Positions 1 through 64,000 of a stretch of 64,000 nt of DNA are shown here, piece by piece (position 1 is the stretch's first letter; every line of letters begins with the position of its first letter). The position numbers were made by a program, and so were the translations under genes. Source of the stretch: a virus. Location of the stretch: the IMG/VR virus record IMGVR_UViG_3300044726_000013, positions 1 through 64,000 of that record. One strand, given 5' to 3'. The notes below the pieces were generated by a model, which was not told the DNA's origin, ran no database searches, and saw only the letters and a list, made by a program, of their open reading frames with translations.

Positions 1-45
1 ACTCAGATAGACGGGTTCTACCGCTACAATGATGAAGCCGCTTGA
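1..45 (+). CDS. 3' end of a tail-assembly protein (NlpC/P60, lambda K-like), partial
   Basis: Frame 1 reads TQIDGFYRYNDEAA*. A GFYRY C-terminus directly before a J-like gene is typical of these proteins. Confidence 0.45.
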   Translation, partial: TQIDGFYRYNDEAA

Positions 46-3000
46 GCCGCGCACAGGTGAAATCTATGGCCCTGACACCATGGTCAGGTTCTTCCTGTTC
101 AAGCACGCGCTTCAGGGTGACCGCCACGTCTGTGAGGTGCCAGCGGGCCTGAGCATAGCTGAGGCGCTTGACCTGAGCATTGAAGACAGCGGCTGGCGTG
201 AGCGCTACCGGCACAGCTTCACCATCTTTCTGCAAGACGGCAGCTTGGTGCCAGAGCATATGTGGGACCGCGTGCGGCTCAAGGCAGGCACCGCCTGCGT
301 GGCGCGCCCGGTGGCTGAGGGGCCGTTCTTGGCCATCATACCGGCGCTGCTACCCACCCTGCTTGGCCCGCTGTTTGCTGGCATGGGCTTCTTTGGCCAG
401 TTGCTGCTGACGGGCATCACAATCGGCCTGAAGTTTCTGCTGAACAAGCTGTTTGCGCCCAAGCCGGTCAAGCCCACGCCCAGTGACCGTAAGGAAGTCT
501 ACTCAATTCTCGGCTCACGCAATGAGATCACCCAGTGGGAGCCCATACCGCTGGTGCTGGGCCGCCACCGCATCACGCCGCCTCTGTGCGCCAGTCCTTA
601 CACTGAGACGGTGGGTGATGAGCAATACCTGCGGCAGTTGTTCTGCAACGGCTACGGCGCGCTGGCCATTGAGGCCAACAGCATCAAGATTGGTGAGACG
701 CTGGTCAGCGCCTTTCCAGAAGCCCAACTTGAACACCGCTACGGCTATGCCGGTGACGCGGCATCCACGCTCTACCCCCGCAATGTTCTTGAGCAGCCGT
801 TTTCCATAGATTTGCTGAAGAACGTGCCTGATGCGCAGGGCTACCCCACCGCTGCGGTGACGCCTTGGGTTGAAAAAAGAACTGCCACCGATACCGTAAG
901 CTGCGGGCTTGATTTCTCATGGCCGCAGGGCCTTGGCGTCATCTCAGATGAAGGCCAGCGCAGCGGGCGTGAGGCCATCATCTACATTCAATGGCGCAAG
1001 GCGGCCACCGAAATACCCCCAGCGGCTGCGGGCGCGTGGTCTGGCAACCTTGTGATGAAGGTTAGCGCATCCACACAAAAGACGGTCAGGCGCACGTACA
1101 ACATCACATTTCCCGCTGCCGGGCAGTATGACGTGCGCGTCCACAAAGAAAGCCCTGAGATAACCAAGTACTGGGTAGACGCCAACTGGACCGCTCTTGA
1201 CATGCTGCTGTTCACGGCGCTGCGCAGCTTCACGCTTGGCGTGCCGCTGCGGTTTGCTGACGCGCCGCTGAGCGTCACCGCCATACGCATCAGGGCCAGC
1301 GGCCAACTGAACCAAGTGGTGGACAGCTACAACTGCGTGGTGCAGTCAAGGGTGGTGGCGTTCAACGGCACCTCTTGGGTGAATGACGTGGCGTCAAACA
1401 ACCCGGCTGACCTGTTCAGGCACGTGCTGACGTGCAAGGCCAACAGGCGGCCATTCCCAGTAGCGCAGATTGATCTGGTGCAGCTTCAGAAATGGTGGAC
1501 GTACTGCGTCCAGCAGAAGTGGCACTACAACAAAGTAGTCCGCAGCCAGATGTCAGTCTATGACCTGATCATTGAAATCTGTGCTGCCGGGCGCGGCATG
1601 CCAGTCTTCAGGGACGGCAAATGGTCTGTGGTCTGGGATGAGCAGGCCGTACCCATCAGCCAGTTGTTCACCCCGCGCAATAGCTGGAACTTTGAAGAGC
1701 AACGTGACCTTGAGCCCATACCGCATGGCTACCGCATGCGCTTCCCCAGTGAAACCAAGGGCTGGCGTGAAGATGAGCGGGTGGTCTACAACGACGGCTA
1801 CAGCAAGACCAACGCCACGTTGCTTGAGGGCTTTGAAATGCCCGGCGTCACCAACACTGACAGCATCTGGAAGCACGGGCGCTTTCACCTTGCCCAGCGC
1901 ATTCTGCGCCCCGGCATCTTCAGCCTCTATGCCGGGTGGGACGCACTGCCGCTCATCCGGGGTGACCGCGTGCGCGTCAACCATGACAGCTTCAGGTACG
2001 GGCTCTACAGCGGGCGCGTGACGGCGGTGGACGCCGCCAAGCAAGAGGTGACCATTGACACCAACGTGACGCTGGCAGGTGCCACCAACTACATGTTCAG
2101 GTTCAGGCTGGCGGGCGGCACGTTCCTTGAGCGCACCATTGACCCCGGCTACATAGGCGTGGAACTCAACAAGCTGGGGCTGGTGGGCACCGCCATGCCC
2201 ATGCCCGCCGTGGGTGACCTGTTTGCGCTTGGCTACGCCAGCCTAGACAGCGAAATCTTCAGGGTCATCGGCATAGAGCCTGAAGACAACTTTGTGCACC
2301 GGCTGATGATGGTGGCTGATGCACCTGAGATAGCTGACGCTGACACCGGCCAGATACCCGACTACACTGAGGGTATCAGCGTACCCATTGACCCCTACAC
2401 CCTGCCGCCGCGCAACCTGAAGGTCAGTGATGGCGTCTATGCCGATGGCGGCGGCGTCTACTGGGCCTACCTGCTGGTCAGTTGGGAGCCCCCGGCCTAC
2501 GGCAGGGTCACCAGCTTCCAGCTTCAGTACCGTGAAGGCGCTGATGATGATGACCCGTGGTCAAGCGGTGGGTCATTTGGCCCCAACGTCACGTCAGGTG
2601 AAATCAGGCGGCTGGACAGCGGCGTCTACACCGTGCGCTGCCGCTGCGTCTTTGACAGTGGCACCTACAGCGGCTGGGGCTACGCTGAGGCCAAGGCCAC
2701 CAACGAGTACACGCTGCCCCCGGCTGACGTGACCAACTTCAGGATAAACATCACGGGTGACACGGCCATCCTGCGGTGGGACCCAGTGCCCGGCATAGGC
2801 ATCATTTATGATCTGCGCTGGGCGTCTGAGGCGGTGCCCATACCTACGTGGAATGCATCAATACCCTTGGTCACCAGCGTCACTGACAGCGCTACCATAG
2901 CCACGCGCACCGGCACGTTCTTCATCAAGGCCAAGAAGCCATGGGGCGTCAGCAGCCTGAACGCCAAGATGATCAGCAGTCTGGTGGGCAGCTTCACGCA

Positions 3001-4917: not shown

Positions 4918-4929
4918 GGGAGAGAACCT

Positions 4930-5894: not shown

Positions 5895-5912
5895 CGGCGG
5901 AGGACCCACCTA

Positions 5913-7647: not shown

Positions 7648-7649
7648 CG

Positions 7650-7710: not shown

Positions 7711-7763
7711 TGCCCCCAGAGGCCCTGAAGCCTCTGTACGGGCCTGCTGTGAGGTTTTGAGAA

Positions 7764-17806: not shown

Positions 17807-18649
17807 ATGCGCGTTGAAGACATCTGGGTGTTCGCCCAAAAGCGGCACTACATCTACCTGAGACGCACAGCCGGGGCACCCCCGGAAACGTGGACTGATG
17901 ACCCCATTCTGAAGACCTACCGCTTCTGCAACATGTACCGTGAACTTGACACCGTGACCGATTGGTTGCGGGTCAACTGGCGTGAGCCGCACGCTGACCA
18001 CCCTGACCTGTGGCACGCCTTTGTGGTGGCCCGGCACATCAACAACGTGCCCATGCTGACTGCGCTGGGCGGCATCACGCTGCCGTGGGACCCCGGCCAT
18101 TTCATTGACGTGGGCATGGCCCGCAAGCAGGCTGGTGAGCGCGTCTGGTCTGCCGCCTACATCATTGGCACCCGCACGCCCGGTGACAAGTGCATCTACA
18201 TTGCCGATAACGTGCTGACGCCCATGTGGCGCAAGCGTGACAAGATCAGGCCGCAACAGGGTGACACGCTGACCAGTTGGCACATGCAGCTTGGCCTATG
18301 GTTCGGCATGGCCAGCTTCATGGCGGCGCAGGTGATTGCGGATATCAAGCACGCCACCCCGGCGCTGAAGAACGCTGGTGACTGGCACACCTTCTGCGCC
18401 AGCGGGCCGGGCAGCCGCCGTGGGCTCAACCGCATCTTTGAGCGTGACAAGAATGCGCCTTGGCGTGAAGATGACTTCAGGCTGAAGCTGCTGAGCCTGA
18501 GGCAGGAACTGGCACCCATGTTTGCCGCCAGCGGCTGGGCTATACCTGACGCGCAAGACGTGCAGAACATGCTGTGTGAGTTTGACAAGTACGAGCGCAC
18601 CCGGCTGGGTGAGGGCAAACCCAAGCAACTGTTCAGAGGTGGATCATGA
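17807..18649 (+). CDS. aGPT-Pplase clade 1 (HhH-glycosylase-like helical protein of thymine hypermodification systems)
   Basis: WTDDPIL..YRFCN.YRE.D, F.A.QV..D, GPGS.RGL and D.QN.LCEFDKY.R motifs. Confidence 0.85.
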   Translation: MRVEDIWVFAQKRHYIYLRRTAGAPPETWTDDPILKTYRFCNMYRELDTVTDWLRVNWREPHADHPDLWHAFVVARHINNVPMLTALGGITLPWDPGHFIDVGMARKQAGERVWSAAYIIGTRTPGDKCIYIADNVLTPMWRKRDKIRPQQGDTLTSWHMQLGLWFGMASFMAAQVIADIKHATPALKNAGDWHTFCASGPGSRRGLNRIFERDKNAPWREDDFRLKLLSLRQELAPMFAASGWAIPDAQDVQNMLCEFDKYERTRLGEGKPKQLFRGGS

Positions 18650-19876: not shown

Positions 19877-20149
19877 ATGAATAACGACCGCCGCAAGAGC
19901 ATCAGCAAGCTGCATGACGAACTTGACACGCTCAAGAGCGCGCTTGAGGATTTGCGTGACCAGATAGACACCCTGAAGGGTGAAGAGGAAGACGGCTTCA
20001 ACAACCTGCCTGAGGGCCTGCAACAGGCTGAGCGTGGGCAGGCCATGGAAGAGGCCACCAACCAGCTTCAGACCGCCTATGACGCCGCTGACAGCGCCGT
20101 CAGCAGTCTGGATGAGGCCCTGACCGCCCTTGATGACGCGGGGGTCTGA
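19877..20149 (+). CDS. Acidic coiled-coil hypothetical protein
   Basis: MN..RRK.I and N.PE.LQ..ERG motifs. Confidence 0.75.
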   Translation: MNNDRRKSISKLHDELDTLKSALEDLRDQIDTLKGEEEDGFNNLPEGLQQAERGQAMEEATNQLQTAYDAADSAVSSLDEALTALDDAGV

Positions 20150-20150
20150 G

Positions 20151-20435
20151 ATGCGCAACGCCATGATCAACCCTGTGCCGAACCTGAACGGCAACAGCAG
20201 TGAGAGCCTGCTGAAACAACTGGGTGGCGTGCTGACCGCCCTGCATGACCTTGAGAAGGCCATGCGGGGTGCCAGCGACTGCTACCACGGGCGCAACTTT
20301 CAGACCGTGAGGTTTAGCGTTGAGAGCCAACAGGCCGCCCAGCGGGCGTGGCATGAGCGCTTTGAGTGGCTGAGCCAGTTTGAGCGTGAGATTGAAGACA
20401 TGAGGCTGGCAATCCAGCAGAAAGAAGGCATGTAA
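20151..20435 (+). CDS. Hypothetical protein
   Basis: P..NLNG.S...L and HGRN.Q motifs. Confidence 0.65.
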   Translation: MRNAMINPVPNLNGNSSESLLKQLGGVLTALHDLEKAMRGASDCYHGRNFQTVRFSVESQQAAQRAWHERFEWLSQFEREIEDMRLAIQQKEGM

Positions 20436-20764
20436 TGTGGATTTGTTTCAACAACGCGTTTGTCAGCGTGGTACAAGACAGGGATAAGCCCGGCTACTTG
20501 CTGGTGCGCGCCCGGCGCAAGGCGCACCTGACCAAGCTGTTCCCCAAGGCCAAGATCACCGAGACACCCAAGCGTGACTACCGCTGGCGCGTCAGCGTGC
20601 CCCCCCTCTACATGGCCGATCTAGTGGCCAAGCACATCATAGGCATTGACTACGGCAACTTCAAAGACAGCGTGAAGGAAGACGCCCTGCATGACATGTA
20701 CAGCCTCTGGTGGGGTGACCATCACCGCTACCAGACCGACCGGCACCGGCAGAAGTGGGGGTGA
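20435..20764 (+). CDS. Hypothetical protein
   Basis: MWI....F.SVV, LLVRAR, DYRWR and IDY.NFK motifs. Confidence 0.75.
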   Translation: MWICFNNAFVSVVQDRDKPGYLLVRARRKAHLTKLFPKAKITETPKRDYRWRVSVPPLYMADLVAKHIIGIDYGNFKDSVKEDALHDMYSLWWGDHHRYQTDRHRQKWG

Positions 20765-20795
20765 GCGATTTTTCTTCAGCGGGGTCCATTTAGGT

Positions 20796-20874: not shown

Positions 20875-22488
20875 ATGACCACCACCAAAGTTTTTACCCC
20901 GTCACCTGAACAGGCCGTGTTTCTTGACTGGATTTCTAACGGCAAGGGCTCTTGCGTGCTTGAGGCGGTTGCCGGTGCGGGCAAGACCACCACGCTGCTT
21001 GAAGGCGTCAAGCGCATGCAGGGTGAGGTTTTTCTGGGTGCCTACAACACCAAGATGGCTGCTGAGTTGAAGCAGAAGCTGGCGGCCATGGGCCTGCCCA
21101 ACAAGGGCGCTGACGGCAAGAACGCCGCCACGTTTCACTCTGCGGGCATGAGCGCCCTGCGCAGCGCCAACAAGGCCATTCAGGTCAATGACAAGAAGGT
21201 GCGTGATCTGGTTGACGGTCTGGTCAAGAGCCAGAGCGGCGTCTTTGCCGTGCGTGACGCGGCTGACGGTGAAATCACCGCCATCTGCCAGTTGGTCGGC
21301 CTTGCCAAGCAGACCGGCTTTGGCGTTGACAATCTGGTGCCCAACGTGAAGCCCGCCTACTGGGTTGAACTGATCAACCGCCATGACGTGGCTGACCGTC
21401 TGCCCGATGATTACAACGTGGCTGATCTGGTGACCACCGCTGAGCGGGTGCTGGCGCTGAGCAACGCTGACCGTGACACCATTGATTTTGATGACATGTG
21501 CTACCTGCCGCTGTTGCGCCGCCTGCGCTTTTGGCCCAAGGATTGGGTGCTGATTGATGAGGCGCAAGACACCAACGCCGTGCGCCGTGAGATTGCCCGC
21601 AAGATGCTGCGCCCGCATACCGGCCGCCTGATTGCCGTGGGTGATCCCCATCAGGCCATTTTTGGCTTCACGGGCGCTGATAACCAGAGCCTTGATCTGA
21701 TCCGCAAGCTGTTCAACGCCAGCACGCTGGCGCTGAGCGTTAGCTGGCGCTGCCCGTCTGCGGTGGTTGCGGTGGCGCGTGAGTACGTCAGCCACATTCA
21801 GCCCGCGCCTACCGCGCCTGAGGGTGTGGTGCGCTCTGCCACCTACCGCCAGATGGTTGACACCATTCAGCCCGGTCAGGCGGTACTGTGCCGCACCAAT
21901 GCGCCGCTGATTGAATTGTGCTTCAGGTTGATCCGTGAAGGCAAGCCCGCCAAGATTGAGGGCCGGTCTATTGGTGACGGTCTGGTGGCGCTGGTTGGCC
22001 GCTGGAAGGTCAAGGGCCTTGATGCCTTTGAAGGCAAGCTGACCAAGTGGAACCTGCGTGAGACGGCCAAGCTGGCTGGCGCGCCCAAGGTTGATGAGGC
22101 CAAGATTGCCCGCCATGAAGACAAGTACGCCACCATTCTGGTGCTGCTTGAGCGTGCCCGTGAGCGTGGTTTGCAGACGGTGGCTGAGATGCAGGCCATG
22201 GTGCAGGGCATGTTCTCTGACACGGCGCTTGAAGGCCAGACGGCCAATCTGGTGGTGCTGTCTAGCGTGCACAAGAGCAAGGGGTTGGAGTGGCCGGTGG
22301 TGCACATTCTGGGCCGTGGTGACATCATGCCCAGCCCGCGCGCCAAGCAAGATTGGCAGATCGAGCAGGAAATCAACCTCTGCTACGTGGCGGTGACTAG
22401 GGCGCAAGAGGTGCTGGTTGACGTGCCCATGCCTACCCCGGAAGACCTGAAGCCCACCCAGAAGCCGGTTGAGGGGGTGGCGGCATGA
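20875..22488 (+). CDS. Second UvrD-like SF1 helicase
   Basis: AVAGAGKT, IDEAQD, VGDPHQAIFGF, SVHKSKGLEW and YVAVTRA motifs. Confidence 0.92.
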   Translation: MTTTKVFTPSPEQAVFLDWISNGKGSCVLEAVAGAGKTTTLLEGVKRMQGEVFLGAYNTKMAAELKQKLAAMGLPNKGADGKNAATFHSAGMSALRSANKAIQVNDKKVRDLVDGLVKSQSGVFAVRDAADGEITAICQLVGLAKQTGFGVDNLVPNVKPAYWVELINRHDVADRLPDDYNVADLVTTAERVLALSNADRDTIDFDDMCYLPLLRRLRFWPKDWVLIDEAQDTNAVRREIARKMLRPHTGRLIAVGDPHQAIFGFTGADNQSLDLIRKLFNASTLALSVSWRCPSAVVAVAREYVSHIQPAPTAPEGVVRSATYRQMVDTIQPGQAVLCRTNAPLIELCFRLIREGKPAKIEGRSIGDGLVALVGRWKVKGLDAFEGKLTKWNLRETAKLAGAPKVDEAKIARHEDKYATILVLLERARERGLQTVAEMQAMVQGMFSDTALEGQTANLVVLSSVHKSKGLEWPVVHILGRGDIMPSPRAKQDWQIEQEINLCYVAVTRAQEVLVDVPMPTPEDLKPTQKPVEGVAA

Positions 22489-24089: not shown

Positions 24090-24261
24090 GCGGCGGCGCG
24101 CTGAGCGGGCGGCGCACAAGTTCAGTGATGACATAGGCGGGCACGCCAGCAACTACCGCCAGACCGTGCCGCCCATGGTGCACACCAACATCAAGGATCA
24201 CAGTGATGTGCGTGACGCCACAACCGAAAAACCGCTGGCACCAAAACCTGACCGATGTTAG
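24058..24261 (+). CDS. Hypothetical protein
   Basis: 67-aa ORF filling the gap before the ino1 leader. Confidence 0.4.
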   Translation: MDPWFKLTTAERRRAERAAHKFSDDIGGHASNYRQTVPPMVHTNIKDHSDVRDATTEKPLAPKPDRC

Positions 24262-24312
24262 GTTCAGGGGTAGCAGGGCCTGTAGGGGTACGGGAGTAAC
24301 AGGCTCTGCAAC

Positions 24313-24356
24313 GGCGGCCCGTGGCATTGGCTGGTCACGGGCCGCCTGTTTATTTC
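24313..24356 (+). terminator. Terminator-like hairpin just upstream of the ino1 RBS
   Basis: GGCGGCCCGTGGC...GTCACGGGCCGCC followed by TGTTTATTTC. Confidence 0.55.
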
Positions 24357-24373
24357 AACACAGTGAGGGTTTC

Positions 24374-25456
24374 ATGAGGAAAATACGCGTGGCCATTGTG
24401 GGCGTGGGCAATTGCGCCAGCGCCCTGATCCAAGGGCTGGCTTACTACGGCCAGACATCTGACAACTACCCCAAGCCCGGCATGATCACACCCTTGCTGG
24501 GCGGCTACGGCCCGGCTGACATTGAGGTGGTCACCGCCTTTGATGTGGTAGACACCAAGGTGGGGTTGCCCATCAATCAGGCCATCTGGGCGCAACCCAA
24601 CAACACCACGGCAATAGTGGATAGCGTGCCTGAGTGCGGCAAGGTCTACCGTGGCCCCACGCTTGACGGTCTGGGCAAGTACCTGCGTGAGGTGGTGGGT
24701 GAAAGCACAGTAGAGCCGATTGACGTTGAAGACACGCTGGCGCTGCTGAATGTGGATGTTCTGGTCAGCTACCTGCCGGTGGGCTCTGATCTGGCGGCCC
24801 AGCACTATGCCGGGGCGGCGCTGCGCGCCAACACAGCATTCGTGAACTGCATGCCTGCGTTCATTGCCTCTGACCCTGAATGGGCCGCTGCCTTCAAGCG
24901 GGCGGGGGTGCCCATCATTGGGGATGACATCAAGTCACAGGTGGGGGCCACCATTGTGCACCGCACGCTGGTGCAGTTGCTGCGTGAGCGCGGCTATGTG
25001 CTGAGGCGCACCAGCCAGTTGAATGTGGGCGGCAATTCTGACTTCCTCAACATGCTTGAGCGCAGCCGCCTGACCAGCAAGAAGATCAGCAAGACGCGGG
25101 CCGTCACCAGCATCATGGGCGTGGAACTGCCTGCTGAAGACGTGCACATTGGCCCGTCTGACTATGTGCCGTGGCTGGGTGACACCAAGGTGGCGCACAT
25201 CAGGCTTGAGGCTGAGGGCTTTGGTGGCGCACCGTTGACCATGGACCTGAAGCTTGAGGTGGTTGACAGCCCCAACAGCGCGGGCGTGGTGATGGACGCC
25301 ATACGCTGCGCCGCCGTGGCGCAGGACCGTGGGCAGGGCGGGCCGGTGGCGGCAGCCTGCGCTTGGTACATGAAAAGCCCGCCCGAACAGTGGGATGATA
25401 GCGTGGCCAGTGATCTGCTTGATGAATGGCTGAGAGGGGATGATCTGACATGGTGA
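24374..25456 (+). CDS. ino1: myo-inositol-1-phosphate synthase (inositol-3-phosphate synthase)
   Basis: GVGNCAS Rossmann motif, YLPVGS, GDDIKSQVGAT, QLNVGGN.DFLNM, SKKISKT, HIGPSDYVPWL and DSPNSAG; 360 aa; GAGGG RBS. Confidence 0.95.
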   Translation: MRKIRVAIVGVGNCASALIQGLAYYGQTSDNYPKPGMITPLLGGYGPADIEVVTAFDVVDTKVGLPINQAIWAQPNNTTAIVDSVPECGKVYRGPTLDGLGKYLREVVGESTVEPIDVEDTLALLNVDVLVSYLPVGSDLAAQHYAGAALRANTAFVNCMPAFIASDPEWAAAFKRAGVPIIGDDIKSQVGATIVHRTLVQLLRERGYVLRRTSQLNVGGNSDFLNMLERSRLTSKKISKTRAVTSIMGVELPAEDVHIGPSDYVPWLGDTKVAHIRLEAEGFGGAPLTMDLKLEVVDSPNSAGVVMDAIRCAAVAQDRGQGGPVAAACAWYMKSPPEQWDDSVASDLLDEWLRGDDLTW

Positions 25457-26496
25457 GAGAATTTTCAACTGAGCAACACCGCAAGCACTTTGCTGAGTTC
25501 TGTAGGTGGGAGTTGGCCAGCGGTGGCCCAGACCCGCAACTGGCCATGGTGGCTTATATGGCCCGCCAGCAAGAGGTGAATGAAGAGGAGCAGTTGTGGC
25601 GGGCCTTCTGCTACATTGGCCCCTACAACGTGCCCTACGGTGAAGTGCTGTGGCGGCACTGGTCATACCGCGATCTGGCTGATGACGAGAAGGGCATCAT
25701 AAAGGCGGGCCTGCGCAACTGGCTTGATGCCGCTTTCAACGCTGACAAGATCACCACCCGCATTGAGCGGCGCACGGTGCGGCGGGCCGATTGGCTGCAT
25801 GAGTACCTGTTGGGTGCCCGGCGCTTCATCTGGCATGACTGGCCTGAGTTGGTGGATGAGTGCCTGAGCCTTCACCCGCACCAAGCCTATGAGGTGGCAT
25901 GGCAGAAGGTCACGGCGCTGCCGCGCATAGGCCGCTACGCGGCAATCAAGCTGATTGAGTACCTGAGGCGCTATCAGGGGCTGATGGTCCTCACGCCCGA
26001 TATACGGCCCAAAGACGCATGGTCACCGCGCCATACGCTGGGCTACATCTGGCCAGACCGCAACCTTGGCAACCGTGACAACAGCCCTGAGGCGCTGACG
26101 GTGGCCAGCCAAGCCTGCATTGACGCGCTGACGCTGCTGAAGCATGACTACGATGTCACCATAGACATGTTTCAGCTTCAGGTGCTGCTGTGTGAGTACC
26201 GTGAAAGCTGGGAAAAGGGCAAGCAATACCCCGGCCGCTCACTAGATAGCGAACTGGGCTACGCCCGCAAGGCTGAACTTGACTGGGCCTACAACAGCGG
26301 CATCTGGCGCGCCCGGCGTGACCTGTTCCCGCTACAGCATCTGGGTGAGCATCAGGGCTGGGAGGGGCCGCGCAAGCCGGTGGCCGGGTGCCTGCGTGAC
26401 CACGGCTACACGTGGACTGACCTGAAGTATGACTTCATCAAAACCACTGATATGGATGAGCCTGTGATGTGGAGAGGGTCTGATGGCAGCCGGTGA
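25450..26496 (+). CDS. aGPT-Pplase clade 2-like / amino acid:DNA transferase-family protein (divergent)
   Basis: GGPDP N-terminus, ERR..R, HhH-like LPRIGRYAAIKLIEYL, LLCEY...GKQYPGRSLD; same cluster as the 5-hmU kinase. Confidence 0.72.
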   Translation: MVREFSTEQHRKHFAEFCRWELASGGPDPQLAMVAYMARQQEVNEEEQLWRAFCYIGPYNVPYGEVLWRHWSYRDLADDEKGIIKAGLRNWLDAAFNADKITTRIERRTVRRADWLHEYLLGARRFIWHDWPELVDECLSLHPHQAYEVAWQKVTALPRIGRYAAIKLIEYLRRYQGLMVLTPDIRPKDAWSPRHTLGYIWPDRNLGNRDNSPEALTVASQACIDALTLLKHDYDVTIDMFQLQVLLCEYRESWEKGKQYPGRSLDSELGYARKAELDWAYNSGIWRARRDLFPLQHLGEHQGWEGPRKPVAGCLRDHGYTWTDLKYDFIKTTDMDEPVMWRGSDGSR

Positions 26497-26677
26497 CCGG
26501 GTTGAGGGTGAGACGTTGCACACGTACCTTGGGGATGGCGTCTACGCCAGCTTTGACGGCTACCAGATATGGCTGCGGGCCGACCGCTTTGGCATAGAGC
26601 AAGCCGTGGCCGTTGAGCCTGAGGTGATGGCCCAACTGGTGATCTACGCCGCCAAGGTCTTTGGGGAAAAGCCATGA
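26483..26677 (+). CDS. Small hypothetical protein
   Basis: YLGDGVYASFDGYQIWL motif. Confidence 0.7.
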   Translation: MAAGDRVEGETLHTYLGDGVYASFDGYQIWLRADRFGIEQAVAVEPEVMAQLVIYAAKVFGEKP

Positions 26678-27111
26678 TGAAAATCTACCGCGTGGCAACA
26701 GACCTGATGCTGTCTGCCCGCACCCACACCCTGACCGATGACCAGTGCGTTGATCTGGTCAACAGGCATGAACTCACCGCCATCATCAACCTGTGGCACA
26801 CGCCGGATCAGCGCGTGGCCAAGATGGTTGACTGGTATGAGTGCGTGCCGCTGCCTGACGGCCAGATCAGTGAGCGCATGGCCCACTGCCTTGAAACCTT
26901 GGCAGATGACGTGGCCGCTGAGGTGCGCAGGGGCGGCAGGGTGCTGATGCATTGTTGGGGCGGGCGCAACCGCTCAGGTTTGCTGGCGGCCTTGGTGCTG
27001 ACCCGGCTGGAGCGTATAACCGGCAGCCAAGCCTATGACCGCGTGCGGGCCGTGCGGCGCGGCGCGCTGGTCAACCTGCACTTTGCCAACTACCTGAAGA
27101 GGCGGCCATGA
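26674..27111 (+). CDS. CX5R (dual-specificity/PTP-like) phosphatase
   Basis: VLMHCWGGRNRSGL active-site loop; PLPD acid loop. Confidence 0.9.
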   Translation: MMKIYRVATDLMLSARTHTLTDDQCVDLVNRHELTAIINLWHTPDQRVAKMVDWYECVPLPDGQISERMAHCLETLADDVAAEVRRGGRVLMHCWGGRNRSGLLAALVLTRLERITGSQAYDRVRAVRRGALVNLHFANYLKRRP

Positions 27112-27521
27112 GCATTCCTGAAAAGCTACGTCAGGCATATCATAACGATCTGACTGACGTGCCCTTGCTGCTTGAGGCGGCTGATGAAATTGACAAGTGG
27201 GACCGGCGTTGGTGCGTGGCTGTTAAGACGATAGCTGAGCGTGATGAAACCATCGAGCGGCTGACGGCAGAGCGCAACAAGCTGGAAGACATGTGGCGTG
27301 AGCGCCCCACCGGCACCCGCAACCAGCGTGAGCGCCAGCTTACCAAGCGGTTGGAAGACGCTGAGGCATTAGCTTTCACGCTGGCAACGCAGGTCAGGGC
27401 GGCTGAGGCCGTACTGGTGACCATTGAGAGCCGGGCCAGCGGCTACACCCATGGGGATGAACGGGTTGAAGCCACGTTCAGGGGCATAGCGGAACTTGCC
27501 CGTAAGAAGGCGGCGTCATGA
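27108..27521 (+). CDS. Coiled-coil hypothetical protein
   Basis: EAADEI..L motif and heptad pattern; coupled ORF. Confidence 0.65.
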   Translation: MSIPEKLRQAYHNDLTDVPLLLEAADEIDKWDRRWCVAVKTIAERDETIERLTAERNKLEDMWRERPTGTRNQRERQLTKRLEDAEALAFTLATQVRAAEAVLVTIESRASGYTHGDERVEATFRGIAELARKKAAS

Positions 27522-28081
27522 GCATTGTTCTGATCAGGGGCACGGGCGGCAGCGGCAAGACCTACATTGCCGAGCAGGTGATCAAGGCGCTGGGCGGCCT
27601 GAGCGCGGCCACCACGTTCACCATGGGGCCCAAAGACAAGACGGCGGGCTACATCTGGCGGGCTCCCCCGGTTACCATCATGGGGCGCTACGGCAACGCC
27701 TGCGGCGGCTGTGACACCATTGGCGGCTGGCCGGGGGGTCCAGATGATATCTGCAAGCGCATTGCCGTTGAGGCGTCACTGGGCCAGAGCGTGCTGTGGG
27801 AGGGCATTGCCGTCAGCAGCTACGGCCAGAAGCGGTTGCTGCTGATGCCGGGCCTGACGGTCATTCAGCTTGACACTTCACTTGAGGAATGCGTTAAGTC
27901 AATCTATGCGCGGCGCGCGGCCAAGGGCAATGCAAAGCCGCTTGACCTGTACCACACCGAGCGTAAGCATAAGGCGCTGTTTACGACCACGCGCAGCAAC
28001 GCGGCGGCGGGCATTGCCACTGAGACGCACAGCCGTGAAACTGCATTGCCGCGCGTCATGGAATTACTTGGTTTAGTTTAG
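27518..28081 (+). CDS. P-loop kinase, putative 5-hydroxymethyluracil DNA kinase
   Basis: IRGTGGSGKT Walker A, G.Y..ACGGCDTI, V.WEG and L..SLEEC...I..RR motifs. Confidence 0.8.
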   Translation: MSIVLIRGTGGSGKTYIAEQVIKALGGLSAATTFTMGPKDKTAGYIWRAPPVTIMGRYGNACGGCDTIGGWPGGPDDICKRIAVEASLGQSVLWEGIAVSSYGQKRLLLMPGLTVIQLDTSLEECVKSIYARRAAKGNAKPLDLYHTERKHKALFTTTRSNAAAGIATETHSRETALPRVMELLGLV

Positions 28082-28276: not shown

Positions 28277-29332
28277 ATGTTTACTATTCACGTCAGCAAC
28301 GTCAACTACGCATGGCTTGACGCCATCAAGCTTATTCAGCAGTACGGCGTGCCAGAAGACAGCCGCGCGGGGCGCGTCAGCGTGATGCCCGGCCCGGTGA
28401 CCACCATCTATAACCAGCCGCGCCAGAGGGTGCTGTTTGATGCTGTGCGTGACGCCAACCCGGTGTTTCACCTGCATGAGGCGCTGTGGATGCTGGCGGG
28501 GCGCAATGACGCTACGGGGCTAGATATATTCGTCTCAGATTTCAGCGCCCGGTTTGCTGAAGAGGATGGCCGCCAGCACGGGGCCTATGGCTACCGCTGG
28601 CGCAACCACTTCACCAACGTGCGTGACTTTGCGGGCGTTGACATGGATCAGCTTGACGTGGTGGTTGACATGCTGGCGCGTGACCCCGGCACACGGCAGG
28701 CGGTCATTGCAATGTGGGACGCTGAGGTTGACCTTGACCAGCCGCGCCTGAAGGATAAGCCCTGCAACACCCACATCTACCTGCGCCTGCGCATCACGCC
28801 ACGCACCGCTGGGGCTAGTGCCAGTGGGCTGATGGTGCAGGCTGACCTGCGTGAACTTGACATGGCCGTGATGTGCCGCAGCAATGACATCGTGTGGGGT
28901 TGCTACGGTGCCAACGCCGTGCACTTCAGCATCTTGCAGGAGTATCTGGCAGCGCGGATGGGCGTAGAGATGGGGCGGCTGACGCAGTTCAGCTTCAACT
29001 GGCACATGTACTCTGCCACCAAGCATCTGGCTGACATCGTGGGGGCTGAGGCGGGCATCATGGGCGGCTACCCCGGCACCGTGCCGCTGGTGACAGACCC
29101 CCGCAGCTTTGACCGTGAGGTGCGCGCCTATGTGCAAGACCCCAGCCTTGCCACGCTGGGTGAATTTGATAACGAGTTTCTGACCCGCACGGCATGGCCC
29201 ATGTACATGGCCAACATTGAGCGCAAGGCGGGCAACACGGCCACGTCTGCCCTGACGTGGGCAGAAAGCATTCAGGCACCAGATTGGCGCAAGGCCACCA
29301 TGGCGTGGCTAGAAAGGAAGATAAAGAAATGA
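28277..29332 (+). CDS. Thymidylate-synthase-family dUMP hydroxymethylase
   Basis: RDANP.FHL.E.LWML.GRND, HGAYG.RWR, D.PCN and CRSND...G.YGAN..HFS.LQEY; Asn indicates dUMP specificity. Confidence 0.85.
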   Translation: MFTIHVSNVNYAWLDAIKLIQQYGVPEDSRAGRVSVMPGPVTTIYNQPRQRVLFDAVRDANPVFHLHEALWMLAGRNDATGLDIFVSDFSARFAEEDGRQHGAYGYRWRNHFTNVRDFAGVDMDQLDVVVDMLARDPGTRQAVIAMWDAEVDLDQPRLKDKPCNTHIYLRLRITPRTAGASASGLMVQADLRELDMAVMCRSNDIVWGCYGANAVHFSILQEYLAARMGVEMGRLTQFSFNWHMYSATKHLADIVGAEAGIMGGYPGTVPLVTDPRSFDREVRAYVQDPSLATLGEFDNEFLTRTAWPMYMANIERKAGNTATSALTWAESIQAPDWRKATMAWLERKIKK

Positions 29333-38572: not shown

Positions 38573-38603
38573 TTCTTACGCTAGGTCGCATACTGCTGTA
38601 AAG
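38573..38603 (-). promoter_or_regulatory. Repeated phage promoter
   Basis: CTTTACA-N18-TAAGAA. Confidence 0.55.
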
Positions 38604-39276
38604 GACCTATTTGCACCCTACTCCATAATTCTTCAACGGCGGCGTGCCGGGCAGCCTCACGCTCAGGGTCACGCAGTGATGTCATCAGGTCATCAGGCTC
38701 ATGGCCGTCAGCCTCACCAAACAGCCTGCGCATGGCGTTGCGGTACTTGGGGCCGCAGATGCGGTAATTCATCAGGGTGATGGTGGGGTCAATGCCTGCC
38801 ATCCACACCAGACCGTTGTTGGTCTGGGCGTCAACCAGCGCCACGCGGGTGATGGCCATGGGCGCTATCACGTCATGGTAGGTGCAGTTGCCCAGACCCT
38901 TAAGGCTATCCTGCCAGTTGGTGGCATAGTTCATCAGGCGGCTGCGGTACCAGCGGGTGCGGGCCTTCATGGGCTTGCCAAGCGGGGCGTGCCCCTCTTG
39001 CTTGCGGCTGACCTGTTCAAGCCAGTCCTCATCCGGCGCAAGCCACCACGGGGCCAACAGGCCCACGTCAATCTCAAGCACCGCCAGCGCCTCACCGGGC
39101 TTGGCGGCCTCGTGGGCGTAGTGCAGGGCGTAGGCGTTGGTCAGGTAGACGGCATCAGGGCAGCTTTCAACGCTGTGCTGCCAGTTGCCCTTGCGCTTGC
39201 CGCGCGGGCGCAGGCCGTTGGCCTTGATGTCAGGCAGGTGCCGGGCGGCGGTGCCGTGGTAGAGTTTGGGGCTCAT
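38581..39276 (-). CDS. ADP-ribosyltransferase-fold protein (KptA/Tpt1-like YHGT clade)
   Basis: LYHGT...I...GL.P, VYLT..YA..YA, VLEID, L.PDED and I.P..I motifs. Confidence 0.6.
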   Translation of the reverse strand: MSPKLYHGTAARHLPDIKANGLRPRGKRKGNWQHSVESCPDAVYLTNAYALHYAHEAAKPGEALAVLEIDVGLLAPWWLAPDEDWLEQVSRKQEGHAPLGKPMKARTRWYRSRLMNYATNWQDSLKGLGNCTYHDVIAPMAITRVALVDAQTNNGLVWMAGIDPTITLMNYRICGPKYRNAMRRLFGEADGHEPDDLMTSLRDPEREAARHAAVEELWSRVQIGPLQQYAT

Positions 39277-41897: not shown

Positions 41898-42128
41898 TTA
41901 AGCGTCTGGTGAAGGGACCATGTTGCGGCGGGTGTTCTTCAGTTGGTGCATGCGCATTGCAAGGAACAGGTGCACCAGTTGCGCCACGTCAGCGTTTAGT
42001 TCGGCGCTGGTGTAGCCCGTGGTCTTGTAGCCGTGCAGGTTCTGCAACAGGGTCTGAATGACGGGCAGATCGTTCTTGGCACCGTCAAGCAGGTCAAACC
42101 ATTCCATGTGGTTCAGGGCGCGGGTCAT
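41898..42128 (-). CDS. Hypothetical protein
   Basis: Coupled ORF. Confidence 0.55.
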   Translation of the reverse strand: MTRALNHMEWFDLLDGAKNDLPVIQTLLQNLHGYKTTGYTSAELNADVAQLVHLFLAMRMHQLKNTRRNMVPSPDA

Positions 42129-42403
42129 GGTGCGGTCTTTCTGGTGTTCCAGCGGGTGGCGGCGGCGTGCAGCAGGGTGGTTTCAAAGGCATCCCACGCG
42201 TGCTTGGTGTAGGGGTAGCGCGGCTGTGTGGCGCGTGTTGACATCTCAGCGCCGCATTCCCAGCACTCAACCTTGACCAGCCAGTCAGGGCTGTCCTGAA
42301 CGTCTATCAGGCCGCTGATGTCAGCCCGGCCATGGCAGAACGGGCATGCGTCAAGCTGCGGCTGGTAGGCACCCAGCTTGGTCTTGGTGCCGTGCGCGGT
42401 CAT
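42125..42403 (-). CDS. Lar-like restriction alleviation Zn-finger protein
   Basis: L..CPFC.G.A...V.C..CGA...A..WN.R. Confidence 0.7.
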   Translation of the reverse strand: MTAHGTKTKLGAYQPQLDACPFCHGRADISGLIDVQDSPDWLVKVECWECGAEMSTRATQPRYPYTKHAWDAFETTLLHAAATRWNTRKTAP

Positions 42404-59438: not shown

Positions 59439-59448
59439 GGGAACTGAC

Positions 59449-59769: not shown

Positions 59770-59772
59770 ACC

Positions 59773-60117: not shown

Positions 60118-60123
60118 ACTGCC

Positions 60124-62718
60124 ATGGCCAAGCGTCTGGGCAAGAAGCTGCATATGAGCCGTGGGGCAACCCACGCCCGCATGCAGTTTCAGGAAGCCAA
60201 GCACAAGCGTGATGTCAGCGGCAAGTTTGCTGACATGCCGGGCAGCGTTGTGCCGGGCCTTGACGGCAACGTTGCTGACATAGCGCCCGCAATGCAGCCA
60301 GCCACCAAGGCTGACTGGATGGCAGGTGCCAAGACCAGCAAGGTGACGGGTGATGACCTGATCAAGCTGCACGTCACCAGCAACCCCAAGAAGGCGGGCA
60401 GCGCGGCGGCTGAGCGCTTTGCCAAATACACCGACGGCATGAGCGTGGCTGACTACCGCAAGGCCGGGGGCACCGCTGAAGACTTGGCTTGGGACCGCAA
60501 GCGCGGCTTTGTCAGCTTTCACACGCCAGACACCTACCACAGCATCAGCACCAACGGGGCCTCCCCGGTCAGTCAGATCAACCACCAGACCGCCACTGGG
60601 CGGCTGGCCAACATCAAGGCGCAGGCTGAGGCCAAGGCAGGCGTGACCACTGAGGCGGTGAAGCCACCCCCACCTGACGTGCCCATGAAGGCGTCTGGTG
60701 AGCCGCCTGAGCCACCGCCGCCGCCCAAGCCGGTAGAAGCGGCCCCTAAACCCGCCGCTGCGGCCCCAGCCAGCCCCGCCAGCGCGTCTGCGGCCCCCAA
60801 GGCACCTGAGACACCCGCCGCGCCCAAACCCGCGCCCACGGGCACGCCTGAGGCCGCTGTGGTGGCCAAGCCGCCTGAGGTGGGCGTGGTTGAGCCTGCG
60901 GCAGCCCCCAAGATTGAGCCAAGCACCAAGGTTGGCTTCTACAAGAAGGGGGTGACGCCGGATGAGACAACCACGCTGAACGGCGTTGAGTTGAAGCCGT
61001 GGACCCCGCCCAAAGACAATGCGGGCTGGGCCAAGGTTGACGGGCAGAACCCAGATATCGGTGAGACACCGCTGAATGCCAAGGGCAAGCGGCCGGGCGC
61101 TGGCGTGCTGATCACTGAGCCTGACGGCAGGGTTTGGCTGGTCAAGCCCACCAAGGGTTATGGCGGCTATGAGTACACATTCCCCAAGGGTGGCCAAGAC
61201 CCCGGTGAGGGCCTGTCACTGCAAGCCACCGCCATCAAGGAAGCGTATGAAGAAAGCGGCCTGAAGGTGCGCATCACTGGCGTGGCCGGTGACTTTGAGG
61301 GTGACACCAGCGTGGCGCGCTACTACCACGCGGTGCGTGAGGACGGTAGGCCCGCAGATCATGGCTGGGAGAGTGAAGCCGTTGTGCTGGTGCCCAAGGA
61401 CCAGCTTGACCTGTACTTGAACAAGAGCCGTGACAAGAGCATTGCCACACAGCACCTGAAGCCTGAGCCCAAGCCCGCTGGCGCGCCGCCTGCCGCGCCT
61501 GCGCCCAAGCCTGCTGAAGGCCCAACCGTGGCACCCAGCGGTCTACCGCCGCAGATGCCCAATGACCACCGCTTCAAGATTGAAGACGTGGTGGACATGC
61601 CCGCCCACAAGATGGTTGATGAGGGTGACGCGGGTCTGGAGTGGGAGTACAAGAAAGAATATCACCAGTACGGTGGCGATAACTGGGTCAAGAGCGTGGG
61701 CGGCACCCGCATCACAGACCAAGCTGACTTCAACAAGAAGTATAAGGATGCCCCGCTCACTTATCTGACCAATGATCAATACGATAACCTTGGCTACACC
61801 AGCGTCAACACCAAGAAGTTGCCCACGTTCAACGAGATTGCGCCGGGCCTGATACAGCGCAACCGTGACCCCAAGGCTATCAGGGACCGCATGTTCAACG
61901 GTGTGACCACGCCGCCTATTGTGCTGAAGCACGGCAACACCTACCGCCTGATGGCAGGCCAGAGCCGCATTTGGACCGGCCTGTCTGCGGGCATCAGGGT
62001 GCCGGTCAAGGTCATAGACGTGACGCCCGGTGCAGCCAAGCCAGTGGTGGGCAAGGGCAAGTTCACTGAGGCTGACATTGTGGGTGACAAGGTAGTCACT
62101 TCAATGTTCAGGGAAAAATTCACCACCCGCATGAACAAGCTGCCTGAGAAGTTTGTCAGTGCGGCCATAAAGGATGGTAAGCCTCACCTCTACGGCAGCT
62201 ACAAAGGTGCCACAGACGCACCGCACATGAAGATGAGCGGCACGTCAAAGGCCCCGGTGGCTTATTATGCCATCAAGGAAAAGCACACAGCCTTCTTTGA
62301 AGACATGAACAGCAAGTCGGGCAAGGCTCTGAAGGGCAATGGCTACACTGACGCGGAGGTAGAGGAATATCACTTGGGCAACATTGCCCATGAACTGGGC
62401 CATCAAATGGATTATATCAACCGCACCAAGGTGCCGGGTAAATTTCAGATGACGGGTGGGTCAAAAGACCCTGAGTTCATGACCAAGGCTGAGAAGATAC
62501 GGAAGAGATATGTCACAACGCCCAACCAGACCGATCAAGAGAAGTGGGCCACCTATTTCACGTCTGATCAAGAGATGTGGGCGGCGGGCACCGAGGTGGT
62601 GATGATGGGCGGGCGCAGGGGCGTCAGCAGCAAGAACAGCTTGCTGGGCAAATTGATGCATGAAGAGGGCTTGGTTGATTGGATGACTGCCCATTACAAG
62701 AGTAGGGGTGCGCTGTGA
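60124..62718 (+). CDS. Polyvalent protein: KHKRD..GKF leader, NPKxxGS domain, NUDIX hydrolase, ParB-like domain, zincin metallopeptidase
   Basis: FPKGG...TAIKEAYEESG Nudix box; PPIVL....L.AG.SR; AHELGHQMD plus EMWA. Confidence 0.8.
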   Translation: MAKRLGKKLHMSRGATHARMQFQEAKHKRDVSGKFADMPGSVVPGLDGNVADIAPAMQPATKADWMAGAKTSKVTGDDLIKLHVTSNPKKAGSAAAERFAKYTDGMSVADYRKAGGTAEDLAWDRKRGFVSFHTPDTYHSISTNGASPVSQINHQTATGRLANIKAQAEAKAGVTTEAVKPPPPDVPMKASGEPPEPPPPPKPVEAAPKPAAAAPASPASASAAPKAPETPAAPKPAPTGTPEAAVVAKPPEVGVVEPAAAPKIEPSTKVGFYKKGVTPDETTTLNGVELKPWTPPKDNAGWAKVDGQNPDIGETPLNAKGKRPGAGVLITEPDGRVWLVKPTKGYGGYEYTFPKGGQDPGEGLSLQATAIKEAYEESGLKVRITGVAGDFEGDTSVARYYHAVREDGRPADHGWESEAVVLVPKDQLDLYLNKSRDKSIATQHLKPEPKPAGAPPAAPAPKPAEGPTVAPSGLPPQMPNDHRFKIEDVVDMPAHKMVDEGDAGLEWEYKKEYHQYGGDNWVKSVGGTRITDQADFNKKYKDAPLTYLTNDQYDNLGYTSVNTKKLPTFNEIAPGLIQRNRDPKAIRDRMFNGVTTPPIVLKHGNTYRLMAGQSRIWTGLSAGIRVPVKVIDVTPGAAKPVVGKGKFTEADIVGDKVVTSMFREKFTTRMNKLPEKFVSAAIKDGKPHLYGSYKGATDAPHMKMSGTSKAPVAYYAIKEKHTAFFEDMNSKSGKALKGNGYTDAEVEEYHLGNIAHELGHQMDYINRTKVPGKFQMTGGSKDPEFMTKAEKIRKRYVTTPNQTDQEKWATYFTSDQEMWAAGTEVVMMGGRRGVSSKNSLLGKLMHEEGLVDWMTAHYKSRGAL

Positions 62719-62945
62719 CAACGTTTGTGCATGTGATCAGCCTGACTGCAACGCTGTACCCGGTGCTGACCCAGAATGAAAACATTCTGGGCGACGGTGA
62801 GATGACGCGTGATGAATTGGAGGCCATGCTGCCTGAGGGTGAGCGGCTGAGTGAGGGGCATTACGAAATCAGTGATGACGGCGTGGCCCGGTGGGTGGGC
62901 TTTGATCTGCCGCCACCCGCTGATGAGGCGGATGAGGCGTTCTGA
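62715..62945 (+). CDS. Small acidic hypothetical protein
   Basis: Coupled to both neighbours. Confidence 0.5.
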   Translation: MTTFVHVISLTATLYPVLTQNENILGDGEMTRDELEAMLPEGERLSEGHYEISDDGVARWVGFDLPPPADEADEAF

Positions 62946-64000
62946 TGCCCGCTGGTCTGAAGCTGAAGACAGCTAAGATATCCAAGGGTGCCCACGGCAT
63001 CAAGATCAAGTGGGACATGAACAAGCACAAGCGTGACAGCTTGACTGGTCGGTTCACGTTCAAGCCCGGCACTGAAGAGTTCAAGTCTGAGCCGTTCGGC
63101 CCCGGCAAGACCGGCAACATCAAGGGCACAGATGTCATCAAGCTGCACGTCACCAGCAACCCAAAGAAGCCGGGTAGCAAGGCCAATACTGACTTTGAGA
63201 ATTACAAGGATGACATGACGGTTGCTGAGTTCAGGGCGGCAGTCGGCAGCAACGTCAAGGCCAATGAGCATCTGACCTATGACACCAAGAAGGGCTTCAT
63301 CACCATTCATGACCCGGCCACGCTGCCCGCCAAGCCGCTGGCCCAGCCTGAGCCGCCGCCCCCGCCCAAGCTGACCATGGCCGAGTATGCCATCACCAGC
63401 AAGACCAAGAACCTGCAACCGCACGACAAGATCAAATTGCTGGCGGGTGAGAACCCCAAGAAGGCGGGCAGCAAGTCTGCGGCCCTATTCTCAAACTATA
63501 AGGATGAGATGACCGTTGGTGAGTTCCACGCGGCCATTGGCAACAAGAAGGCCAGTCAGGAAACGTTGCTCTACGACCTCAAGAAAGGCTTCATCAGCGT
63601 GCACAACGGCGCTGATCTGGCTGACATGCAGAGCGGCAAGCTGAGCCCCGGCAAGCTGGCGGCGCACATGCAGACGGGTGACAAGGGCCTTGGCGTGGTC
63701 AGCAAGAACCCGTTCACCCCCGGCACCAAGAATTATCAGGACTTTGAAGACGCCGCCTTTGACCAAGGGCTGACCACGCAGGCCAAGGTGACAGCCAGCG
63801 TTGACCCGGCCACGGGTGCGCCCAAGCCCAAGTCACTGGCTGATCTGACAGATGATGACGTGGTGGTGAGCCAGTACGGCACTGAATACACCGCGTCGAT
63901 GATGAAGGCCAACACTGACCCACTCTTCAAGAAACAGGTGGATGACAGTCTGGCGTCTGGCAAATGGACCGTCAAGCCCAAGCCGCCTGCCCTTATGGAT
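62945..64000 (+). CDS. Second polyvalent-type protein, partial (runs off the window; absent from the ORF track)
   Basis: ATG overlaps the previous stop; open for 352 codons; KHKRDSLTGRF leader; two NPKxxGS domains plus a degenerate third (NPFTPGT). Confidence 0.8.
   Translation, partial: MPAGLKLKTAKISKGAHGIKIKWDMNKHKRDSLTGRFTFKPGTEEFKSEPFGPGKTGNIKGTDVIKLHVTSNPKKPGSKANTDFENYKDDMTVAEFRAAVGSNVKANEHLTYDTKKGFITIHDPATLPAKPLAQPEPPPPPKLTMAEYAITSKTKNLQPHDKIKLLAGENPKKAGSKSAALFSNYKDEMTVGEFHAAIGNKKASQETLLYDLKKGFISVHNGADLADMQSGKLSPGKLAAHMQTGDKGLGVVSKNPFTPGTKNYQDFEDAAFDQGLTTQAKVTASVDPATGAPKPKSLADLTDDDVVVSQYGTEYTASMMKANTDPLFKKQVDDSLASGKWTVKPKPPALMD

Follow-up and report, generated by a model that had tools for sequence, protein, structure and literature searches.

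Why does a GC-rich phage genome keep so few copies of the words TCC and TCG? The question is raised by IMG/VR virus record IMGVR_UViG_3300044726_000013 (79,594 bp, 61% GC, CheckV completeness 97%), the first 64 kb of which form the window analysed here. In what follows, TCS denotes TCC and TCG, SGA their reverse complements GGA and CGA (S, C or G; W, A or T), and G000 this genome. An earlier note on the window had claimed a strong genome-wide avoidance of these words, and the claim holds: of the 64 trinucleotides none is rarer than these four, and every kilobase is depleted of them. This phage and its closest relatives have purged about 80% of their TCC and TCG words by silent recoding under natural selection, and something reads the three-base word TCS on the DNA of these phages.

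TCS is depleted along the whole genome, on both strands and in every frame

Measured against base composition, observed/expected ratios in the window were 0.12 for TCG, 0.17 for CGA, 0.19 for TCC and 0.32 for GGA, the four lowest values, and 1.90 for TCA and 2.56 for TGA, the two highest. The strand-symmetric loss of TCS/SGA, together with an enrichment of TCA/TGA and of TG/CA, covers positions 1 to 64,000 on both strands and continues to the end of the genome. Strand-symmetrised ratios for the whole genome were 0.14 (TCG/CGA), 0.27 (TCC/GGA), 0.99 (TCT/AGA) and 2.24 (TCA/TGA), and each 1-kb bin was depleted (0.08–0.31). Intergenic DNA was likewise depleted (TCG 0.15, CGA 0.19), and the same pattern was seen on genes of both strands and in all three reading frames. 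A hand count that the earlier note gave for positions 21001–21300 was exact: 18 GA dinucleotides, none after S, and 13 TC dinucleotides, one of them before S.

The codon-preserving shuffle that had been proposed as a check was run on a gene set of greedy open reading frame (ORF) calls, filtered by GC at the three codon positions. Synonymous codons were permuted inside each gene, which keeps both protein and codon usage, and the depletion persisted: out-of-frame observed/expected ratios were 0.16 for CGA (z −40), 0.17 for TCG (z −31), 0.29 for TCC (z −20) and 0.42 for GGA (z −34). The recoding was plain in codon choice. Arginine was encoded by AGR in 84% of cases after a codon of the form xTC versus 10% elsewhere, and codons ending in TC were largely given up where the next codon began with S: ATC made up 16% of isoleucine codons before S and 87% before W, with corresponding figures of 21% and 91% for TTC among phenylalanine codons, and of 3% and 57% for GTC among valine codons. 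Upstream of GAx, four-fold degenerate codons ended in T, A, C and G in 74%, 12%, 6% and 7% of cases, as against 11%, 8%, 44% and 37% elsewhere, and the junction xxT|GAx occurred 1538 times versus 506 expected from the codon shuffle. With T at 74% before GAx, the rule is more than an avoidance of S before GA; T is actively preferred.

This positive side of the trait extends to TG/CA words in general. Their observed/expected ratio was 1.47 here compared with 1.03–1.19 in non-depleted relatives; 44.6% of the T's in this genome are followed by G (34–37% in sister phages), and only 3.8% stand in TCS (14–18% in sister phages). The earlier description of the trait was thus correct, but overlooked both the favouring of T before GA and of TG/CA words and the graded confinement of the trait to one clade, described below. 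Compared with the sister clades, each NTCG and TCGN context was lowered 4- to 30-fold, while the reduction was about two-fold for TCC and five- to six-fold for TCCG and TCCCG; positions flanking beyond these contexts had weak effects. The genome retains 1,199 TCS/SGA sites. As 79% of those in genes could be silently removed by a single change, selection on each site must be weak.

Gain and loss fluxes separate selection from mutation

One explanation of such a pattern would be mutational bias: TCS would be hypermutable, for instance because methylated TCG deaminates or because bases are lost 5' of GA and A is inserted in their place, and would have come to an equilibrium like that of CpG in vertebrates. 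The depletion is indeed partial, uniform and about five-fold, the words to which CpG transitions lead, TCA/TGA and TTG/CAA, are in excess, and the 74:12 ratio of T to A before GA would fit an S-to-T process. To separate mutation from selection, synonymous changes with four unchanged neighbouring bases were counted in triples of equally depleted genomes (G000/L042/L056, G000/L056/L173 and G000/L004/L010, which overlap and all include this genome), with the neutral rate for each type of substitution taken from changes that touch no such word. An initial polarised test in the mid clade, with distant outgroups, had given more gains than losses; it was set aside in favour of these triples because parsimony leans towards 'gain' when the outgroup is the more strongly depleted.

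Among 600 synonymous changes, TCS/SGA was gained 60 times versus 274.5 expected (×0.22, P=2e-55) and lost 44 times versus 15.3 expected (×2.87, P=2e-9), while flux ratios for the control words ACS/SGT and CTS/SAG were 0.96–1.12. In a mutation-selection-drift model these values give e^S = 2.87/0.22 = 13, or a scaled selection coefficient S (distinct from the base code) of 2.57, and this single coefficient predicts ×0.21 gains and ×2.78 losses. A hypermutable word would instead predict unchanged gains (×1) and losses of about ×13. The TCS sites that remain were conserved about as well as average words (95% versus 95% at 97% identity; 60% versus 69% at 83% identity), and CpG in other contexts was spared (ACG 0.93, GCG 1.09). 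The fluxes and the conservation of leftover sites together reject mutational bias, which we regard as very improbable. They also bear out the view in the earlier note that selection and not deamination is at work, as TCS is not hypermutable and it is its creation that is suppressed. The accompanying argument from transversions was likewise sound, in that before GA both C and G were mostly replaced by T and not by transition products.

When the coefficient was computed for all 32 word pairs, it was −2.6 for CGA/TCG, −1.8 for CTC/GAG and −1.7 for GGA/TCC, and reached +1.7 for TCA/TGA and +0.8 to +1.1 for other TG/CA words, so that each TG/CA-containing trinucleotide had a positive value (+0.8 to +1.7). 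Two linked selective forces are therefore seen, one against T-C-S and one for T-G. Since the depletion is the same in all frames, in both gene orientations and in intergenic DNA, the weak per-site purifying selection against TCS/SGA works at the level of the DNA, whatever the strand or frame.

Restriction-site avoidance is strong but does not account for TCS

The genome also bears the marks of classical restriction-site avoidance. CCWGG is absent where 231 copies were expected for the window and 263 for the whole genome, GANTC occurs 5 times versus 282 expected, and the hexamers ACCGGT, AGATCT, AGGCCT, CAGCTG, CCCGGG, CCGCGG, CTGCAG, GACGTC and GGCGCC are at 0, as are GAGCTC, GGATCC, GTCGAC, CTCGAG and GAATTC; GCCGGC is absent from the window and present once in the genome. 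TCGA occurs 10 times versus 282 expected. The only NGGCCN and NGATCN palindromes that remain, TGGCCA (120 versus 26 expected) and TGATCA (56 versus 11), are strongly enriched.

Many of the avoided palindromes contain the word (TCGA, GGATCC, GTCGAC, CTCGAG), and TCC, TCG, GGA and CGA are rare codons here, at 1–3% of their families. Loss of TCS might thus be a by-product of codon usage, of translational selection or of the avoidance of many longer restriction sites. The restriction-palindrome explanation, which the earlier note had named as a possible refutation, fails on coverage: in codon-shuffled genes only 14% of TCS sites fell inside any 4- or 6-bp palindrome, CCWGG or GANTC, and outside these sequences the observed/expected ratio was still 0.31. 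Against the sister clades all TCGN and NTCG contexts are down, out-of-frame depletion outlasts codon-preserving shuffles, intergenic DNA is depleted, and TCS and SGA are equally low on the coding strand. A by-product origin is consequently hardly credible, the least probable of the explanations considered.

Several narrower candidates were rejected on the same kinds of evidence. Avoidance of a Type II restriction site does not match a core word that is three bases long and non-palindromic, with every TCG flank depleted; nor is the near-complete elimination typical of such avoidance seen, with 1,199 TCS sites left while true restriction words stand at 0. We know of no restriction or defence nuclease with a 3-bp non-palindromic specificity. 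Codon usage and translational selection were dismissed because the depletion depends on neither reading frame nor coding strand and extends to intergenic DNA, and readers acting at the RNA level (MazF-type) on the equal depletion of coding-strand SGA and TCS.

Remaining sites repel one another at short range

The 1,199 leftover sites are not randomly placed. The gaps between them had a coefficient of variation of 0.83 (0.99±0.03 if placed at random), a value that no other trinucleotide pair and none of 64 control 4-mers matched. Gaps of up to 20 bp occurred at 0.57 of expectation, and pairs of TCS on opposite strands at 3–15 bp at 0.16–0.40 of expectation, with the same seen in other strong-clade contigs. 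The cost of sites less than about 20 bp apart is therefore more than additive, especially across opposite strands. The longest gap was 503 bp, against about 506 under random placement and an estimated ~400 under simple short-range repulsion.

Under-dispersion had suggested that TCS might serve as a regulated mark of the phage's own; this was rejected on the finding that long gaps are unsuppressed and that leftover sites are slightly below average in conservation. As long gaps are not suppressed and the sites enjoy no special conservation, the leftover sites are tolerated, not needed. Inverted pairs in which SGA precedes TCS were depleted at 3–15 bp and at 21–30 bp; at 16–20 bp they stood at 1.19 in this genome and at 1.72 in other contigs of the clade, for which hairpin stems are one possibility.

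The TCS regime arose once and follows the phage lineage

Relatives were metagenome contigs, mostly partial. In a tree of portal proteins the depleted contigs form one clade (support 99/99), within which depletion is graded: TCG/TCC ratios were 0.38/0.72 in a basal member, 0.28/0.48 in a middle group (the mid clade) and 0.14/0.27 in the group that holds this genome (the strong clade). In the sister contig 3300047409_000468 and in the clade of 3300009610_000003, TCG was not depleted (1.0–1.3); the sister clades do have a mild depletion of TCC and CTC. These data show a single origin of the TCS regime, in the clade's ancestor, followed by intensification along the lineage.

The restriction landscape is distributed differently. 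Contig 3300009610_000003 (TCG 1.3) has nearly the same eliminated sites (CCWGG 0, GANTC 2, more than 12 hexamers at 0) and shares its sample of origin with a relative of this phage at 97% identity. The mid clade, conversely, has a different profile, with CAGCTG present 79 times versus 22 expected where the strong clade has none, yet TCS is still depleted there. A profile shared with a non-depleted clade and differing in the mid clade argues that the trait goes with phage descent rather than with the restriction landscape.

A cost tied to modified thymidine is tentatively favoured

This phage carries a set of genes for the modification of thymidine. The protein encoded at 17807–18649 (+) contains the helical domain of alpha-glutamyl/putrescinyl thymine pyrophosphorylases (aGPT-Pplase) and 5-hydroxymethyldeoxyuridine (5-hmdU) DNA kinases (Pfam PF18723, E 5e-36). 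By tblastn it matched YuA gp14 and a Sonora protein annotated as 'alpha-glutamyl/putrescinyl thymine pyrophosphorylase', and it has homologues in YuA-like, Bordetella, Stenotrophomonas and Delftia phages; its identity was 92% and 79% in depleted relatives and 60% in non-depleted ones. A thymidylate-synthase homologue at 28277–29332 (+; Pfam PF00303, E 4.5e-18) is a probable dUMP hydroxymethylase. The two kinds of gene by which a 5-hmdU pathway is recognised, a dUMP hydroxymethylase-type thymidylate-synthase homologue and a protein of the aGPT-Pplase/5-hmdU DNA kinase type, are therefore both present. Between them lie a dual-specificity (CX5R) phosphatase of the modification operon (26674–27111, +; Pfam PF00782, E 2e-10) and a putative P-loop 5-hmdU DNA kinase (27518–28081, +), suggested by a weak match to PHROG 800 (E 1e-8). 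When compared by annotation, the latter shares the label 'terminase small subunit / putative kinase' with YuA gp13, which stands beside the aGPT-Pplase-like gene of that phage. Identity of the putative kinase to this genome was 87% and 77% in depleted relatives, and 51% and 44% in non-depleted ones.

The gene set also includes Ino1, a myo-inositol-1-phosphate synthase (24203–25456, +; Pfam PF01658, E 5e-35), and next to it a transferase-like protein (25450–26496, +) that had earlier been labelled aGPT-Pplase2-like and has no Pfam hit. A link between the ino1 cluster and the depletion, which the earlier note had raised, was not borne out. The undepleted contig 3300047409_000468 (TCG ~1.0) carries Ino1 at 67% identity and the transferase at 65%; the adjacent transferase is 86% identical in the strong clade and 57% in a further non-depleted clade, and the mid-depleted contigs have a different transferase (30%). 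Five known hypermodifying phages are also undepleted. In the mid-clade contig IMGVR_UViG_3300020000_000032 (L020/L094), Ino1 is 80% identical and the gene at the position of the adjacent transferase 30%. No Ino1 was found in positions 22,576–82,172, two-thirds of the non-depleted 3300009610_000003. As far as the compared sequences go, Ino1 and the neighbouring transferase do not track the depletion.

The explanation to which we lean, with less than even confidence, is that the cost of TCS is tied to the state of the modified T in a T-C-S context; a host enzyme that detects the modified T in that context would be a special case of this. The thymidylate-synthase-type pathway, the DNA kinase and the transferases would replace T and then hypermodify it after replication. 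In this clade T-G would be the context that ends in a finished, protective base, and a T in T-C-S, or more weakly in C-T-C, would end as a liability, as unfinished 5-hydroxymethyluracil, as a phosphorylated intermediate or as a mark recognised by a host nuclease or glycosylase. Any one T-C-S site would then have a low probability of being nicked or damaged, with two close sites on opposite strands being worse. The genome would then have moved T's from TC(S) into TG contexts, with T-S-A, which has T on both strands, as the preferred replacement.

We prefer a cost tied to the state of T because the word starts with the base that, to judge from the pathway genes, this phage modifies; because the T-modifying enzymes in print select T according to the base that follows it, in TG or TC; because the contexts of T shifted together, TG up and TCS down relative to sisters; and because the trait follows the phage lineage. 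In M6, ViI and phiW-14, resistant restriction sites carry T followed by S, and TG is the context in which the M6 kinase works (PMC6449724); the preference of T-dioxygenases is for NTC or NTG (PMC13229309).

Several observations weigh against this explanation. YuA, phiW-14, ViI, FP1 and Sonora, thymidine-hypermodifying by literature or annotation, have no TCS depletion, and the same is true of the sister clades with the same gene cluster, so that a clade-specific change in enzyme specificity would be needed, of which the faster divergence of the putative kinase (44–51%) is the sole hint. The mid clade remains depleted with a different Ino1-adjacent transferase, which argues against one particular adduct. 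With so many sites left, most of those in genes being silently removable, any nuclease would have to be of low efficiency per site.

A host defence reading the bare word is the main rival

The main rival, which we hold to be possible but doubtful, is a host defence that recognises TCS, and TCG above all, as a bare 3-bp word whatever the DNA, and that damages DNA with a low probability per site. It might be a nicking enzyme, a glycosylase or a phosphorothioate-like system with a three-base mark, from which phages with fewer sites or fewer close pairs would survive better. Three lines of evidence are consistent with this: the lineage clearly responds to nucleases, as the loss of CCWGG (0/263), of GANTC (5/282) and of more than 12 hexamers attests; short-range repulsion between sites, stronger across strands, fits nicks that become double-strand breaks; and no phage gene explains the trait. 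A defence system with a three-base motif also exists, namely Ssp with CCA (PMC9646914). The distribution of the trait speaks the other way, since the non-depleted 3300009610_000003 (TCG 1.3) shares nearly the whole restriction fingerprint and a sample with this lineage, and the mid clade, with a different fingerprint, is still depleted. Nor does such a defence predict the general advantage of TG/CA, and it would need a specificity that, as said above, we know from no nuclease.

A bolder form of the favoured thymidine reading, in itself unlikely, is that the genome records the specificity of a host nuclease or glycosylase to which this clade's modified T is visible in T-C-S alone, and which the phage escapes by moving T's out of TCS and into TG.

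Clade-specific genes provide only an improbable source of self-avoidance

Features found only in depleted relatives, and missing from both full-length non-depleted ones, were several small ORFs without a family, a 231-amino-acid (aa) early protein and full-length versions of two virion proteins. Scans of the clade-specific genes with PADLOC, PHROG and Pfam found no nuclease, methyltransferase, deaminase or glycosylase.

The 231-aa early protein (38581–39276, −) has no Pfam family and is predicted to have an ADP-ribosyltransferase (ART) fold. Its AF2 model has a pLDDT of 93, and Foldseek matched it to pertussis toxin S1, DarT1, DarT and Tpt1 (E 1e-4 to 2e-2), with TM-scores of only 0.3–0.45. 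Its neighbour cluster in the ESM Atlas is named DarT-domain; its nearest named neighbours are DarT, PARP and Tpt1, and more than 100 homologues were found in uncultured phages. Among 50 homologues Y44 and E83 never vary and H7 hardly does, which makes these residues candidates for an H-Y-E type catalytic set. A strong-clade contig (74% identity) and a mid-clade contig (66%) encode the protein; neither non-depleted relative does. The two virion-module proteins are an 864-aa protein with a NUDIX domain (60124–62718, +) and a 969-aa protein with a C-terminal R-S-E type ADP-ribosyltransferase domain (62945–64000, continuing to position 65854 of the genome, +; PF03496, E 7e-9). Full-length homologues of both were found only in depleted relatives, and non-depleted ones share short pieces of each. 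A single-sequence search with the ART domain of the 969-aa protein returned close relatives only.

Any of these three proteins might be an enzyme, acquired by the clade, that attacks or marks DNA at TCS/SGA so as to disable the host, the word having then been purged from the phage's own genome. Consistent with such self-avoidance, the 231-aa protein is confined to depleted contigs in these comparisons and its predicted fold and Atlas cluster point to an ART-like enzyme, the full-length virion proteins have the same distribution, and enzymes acting on three- to four-base DNA words are in print (T4 endonuclease IV, TCA; DarT2, TNTC). However, 78 other phage loci with ART-fold homologues (34–47% identity) had neither TCS depletion nor any other odd trinucleotide, so the 231-aa gene is not a sufficient cause; TM-scores to solved ARTs are low; and self-protection with 1,199 sites left would be incomplete. 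An extended motif like that of DarT2 was also rejected, a T at position −2 having no effect. Self-avoidance is accordingly an improbable account of the trait. Several low-GC (~33%) contigs with ART homologues (L118, L127, L128, L139, L141, L143 and others) had a general CpG depletion, with all CG trinucleotides at 0.3–0.5, a pattern distinct from the TCS-specific one.

A further difference between depleted and non-depleted phages lies at the junction at 20764–20794 (+). In both non-depleted relatives a canonical single-stranded DNA-binding protein (SSB; PF00436) stands there (L013:68-757 and L006:3176-3637), between the homologue of the gene at 20435 and the second UvrD-like helicase. There is none at this junction in this genome or in a mid-clade contig, and none anywhere else in this genome; no connection to TCS was found.

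Genome and relatives

The genome, known from metagenome assemblies only, has a siphovirus-type layout with terminase, portal, capsid, tape measure and tail genes, and a replication module made up of a family A polymerase, two UvrD-like helicases, a SNF2 helicase and an AEP primase. The polymerase (30800–32800, +; Pfam PF00476) served to find relatives. IMG/VR holds many, at 62–99% protein identity, and near-identical DNA was found in metagenomes from soil, sediment and groundwater. No close relative was found in the INPHARED phage collection; nearest at the protein level were the Dinoroseobacter phages R5C and R26L, which are 7-deazaguanine phages without TCS depletion. A metagenome scan with the portal protein added one further close contig, which was short, and a genome scan with that protein yielded no clue to the host.

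Three further observations concern gene content. Two small plus-strand ORFs lie at 19877–20149 and 20130–20435, where the greedy caller had put a minus-strand ORF; their homologues are elsewhere in 3300009610_000003, which looks like a local rearrangement. A small early protein (42125–42403, −) weakly resembles the Lar family of restriction-alleviation proteins (PF14354; at E 9e-5 the hit falls under the curated cut-off). A non-depleted sister phage encodes an 801-aa protein with ten RTX calcium-binding repeats (L021:18249-20654, −) that has no counterpart in this genome.

Comparison with known word biases

The trait resembles restriction-site avoidance in virulent double-stranded DNA phages in that words are silently removed from both strands by selection (Rusinov et al. 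2018, PMC6286503); it differs in that TCS removal is partial (~80%), that the coefficient is about 2.6 per site and that TG/CA is positively selected. With phages in which thymidine is hypermodified in specific contexts (PMC6449724, PMC5889632, PMC8989533, PMC13229309) it shares the pathway genes and words set by the bases 3' of T, but here the third base matters (S versus W), for which we found no published case. Proteins able to read three- to four-base words are exemplified by T4 endonuclease IV (TCA on single-stranded DNA; PMC1635256), DarT2 (TNTC; PMC11543638) and Ssp phosphorothioation (CCA; PMC9646914), which makes a TCS reader plausible, although none of these reads TCS, no homologue demonstrably linked to the depletion was found, and the ART-fold family of this clade has undepleted carriers.

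As in vertebrate CpG depletion and the APOBEC3 footprint at TC in human viruses, a word of two to three bases is partially and uniformly depleted with related words in excess. Those footprints are wholly or partly due to hypermutation of the word; TCS, by contrast, is not hypermutable, and it is its creation that is suppressed.

Significance

Avoidance of words in phage genomes is usually a restriction fingerprint, whereas here a 3-bp non-palindromic word is under selection genome-wide in one young clade. The combination of gain and loss fluxes among close relatives with one selection coefficient is a reusable means of separating selection from mutation. Should a host factor turn out to be responsible, it would represent a defence with a specificity shorter than that of any known nuclease. 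If a reader of modified T in T-C-S exists, thymidine hypermodification would for the first time have a modification-dependent restriction activity directed against it, one with a three-base context like that of the MspJI-type enzymes, which read modified cytosine. The non-depleted sisters, together with the hypermodification genes, make the sequence context of thymidine hypermodification in these phages, and its cost, directly testable.

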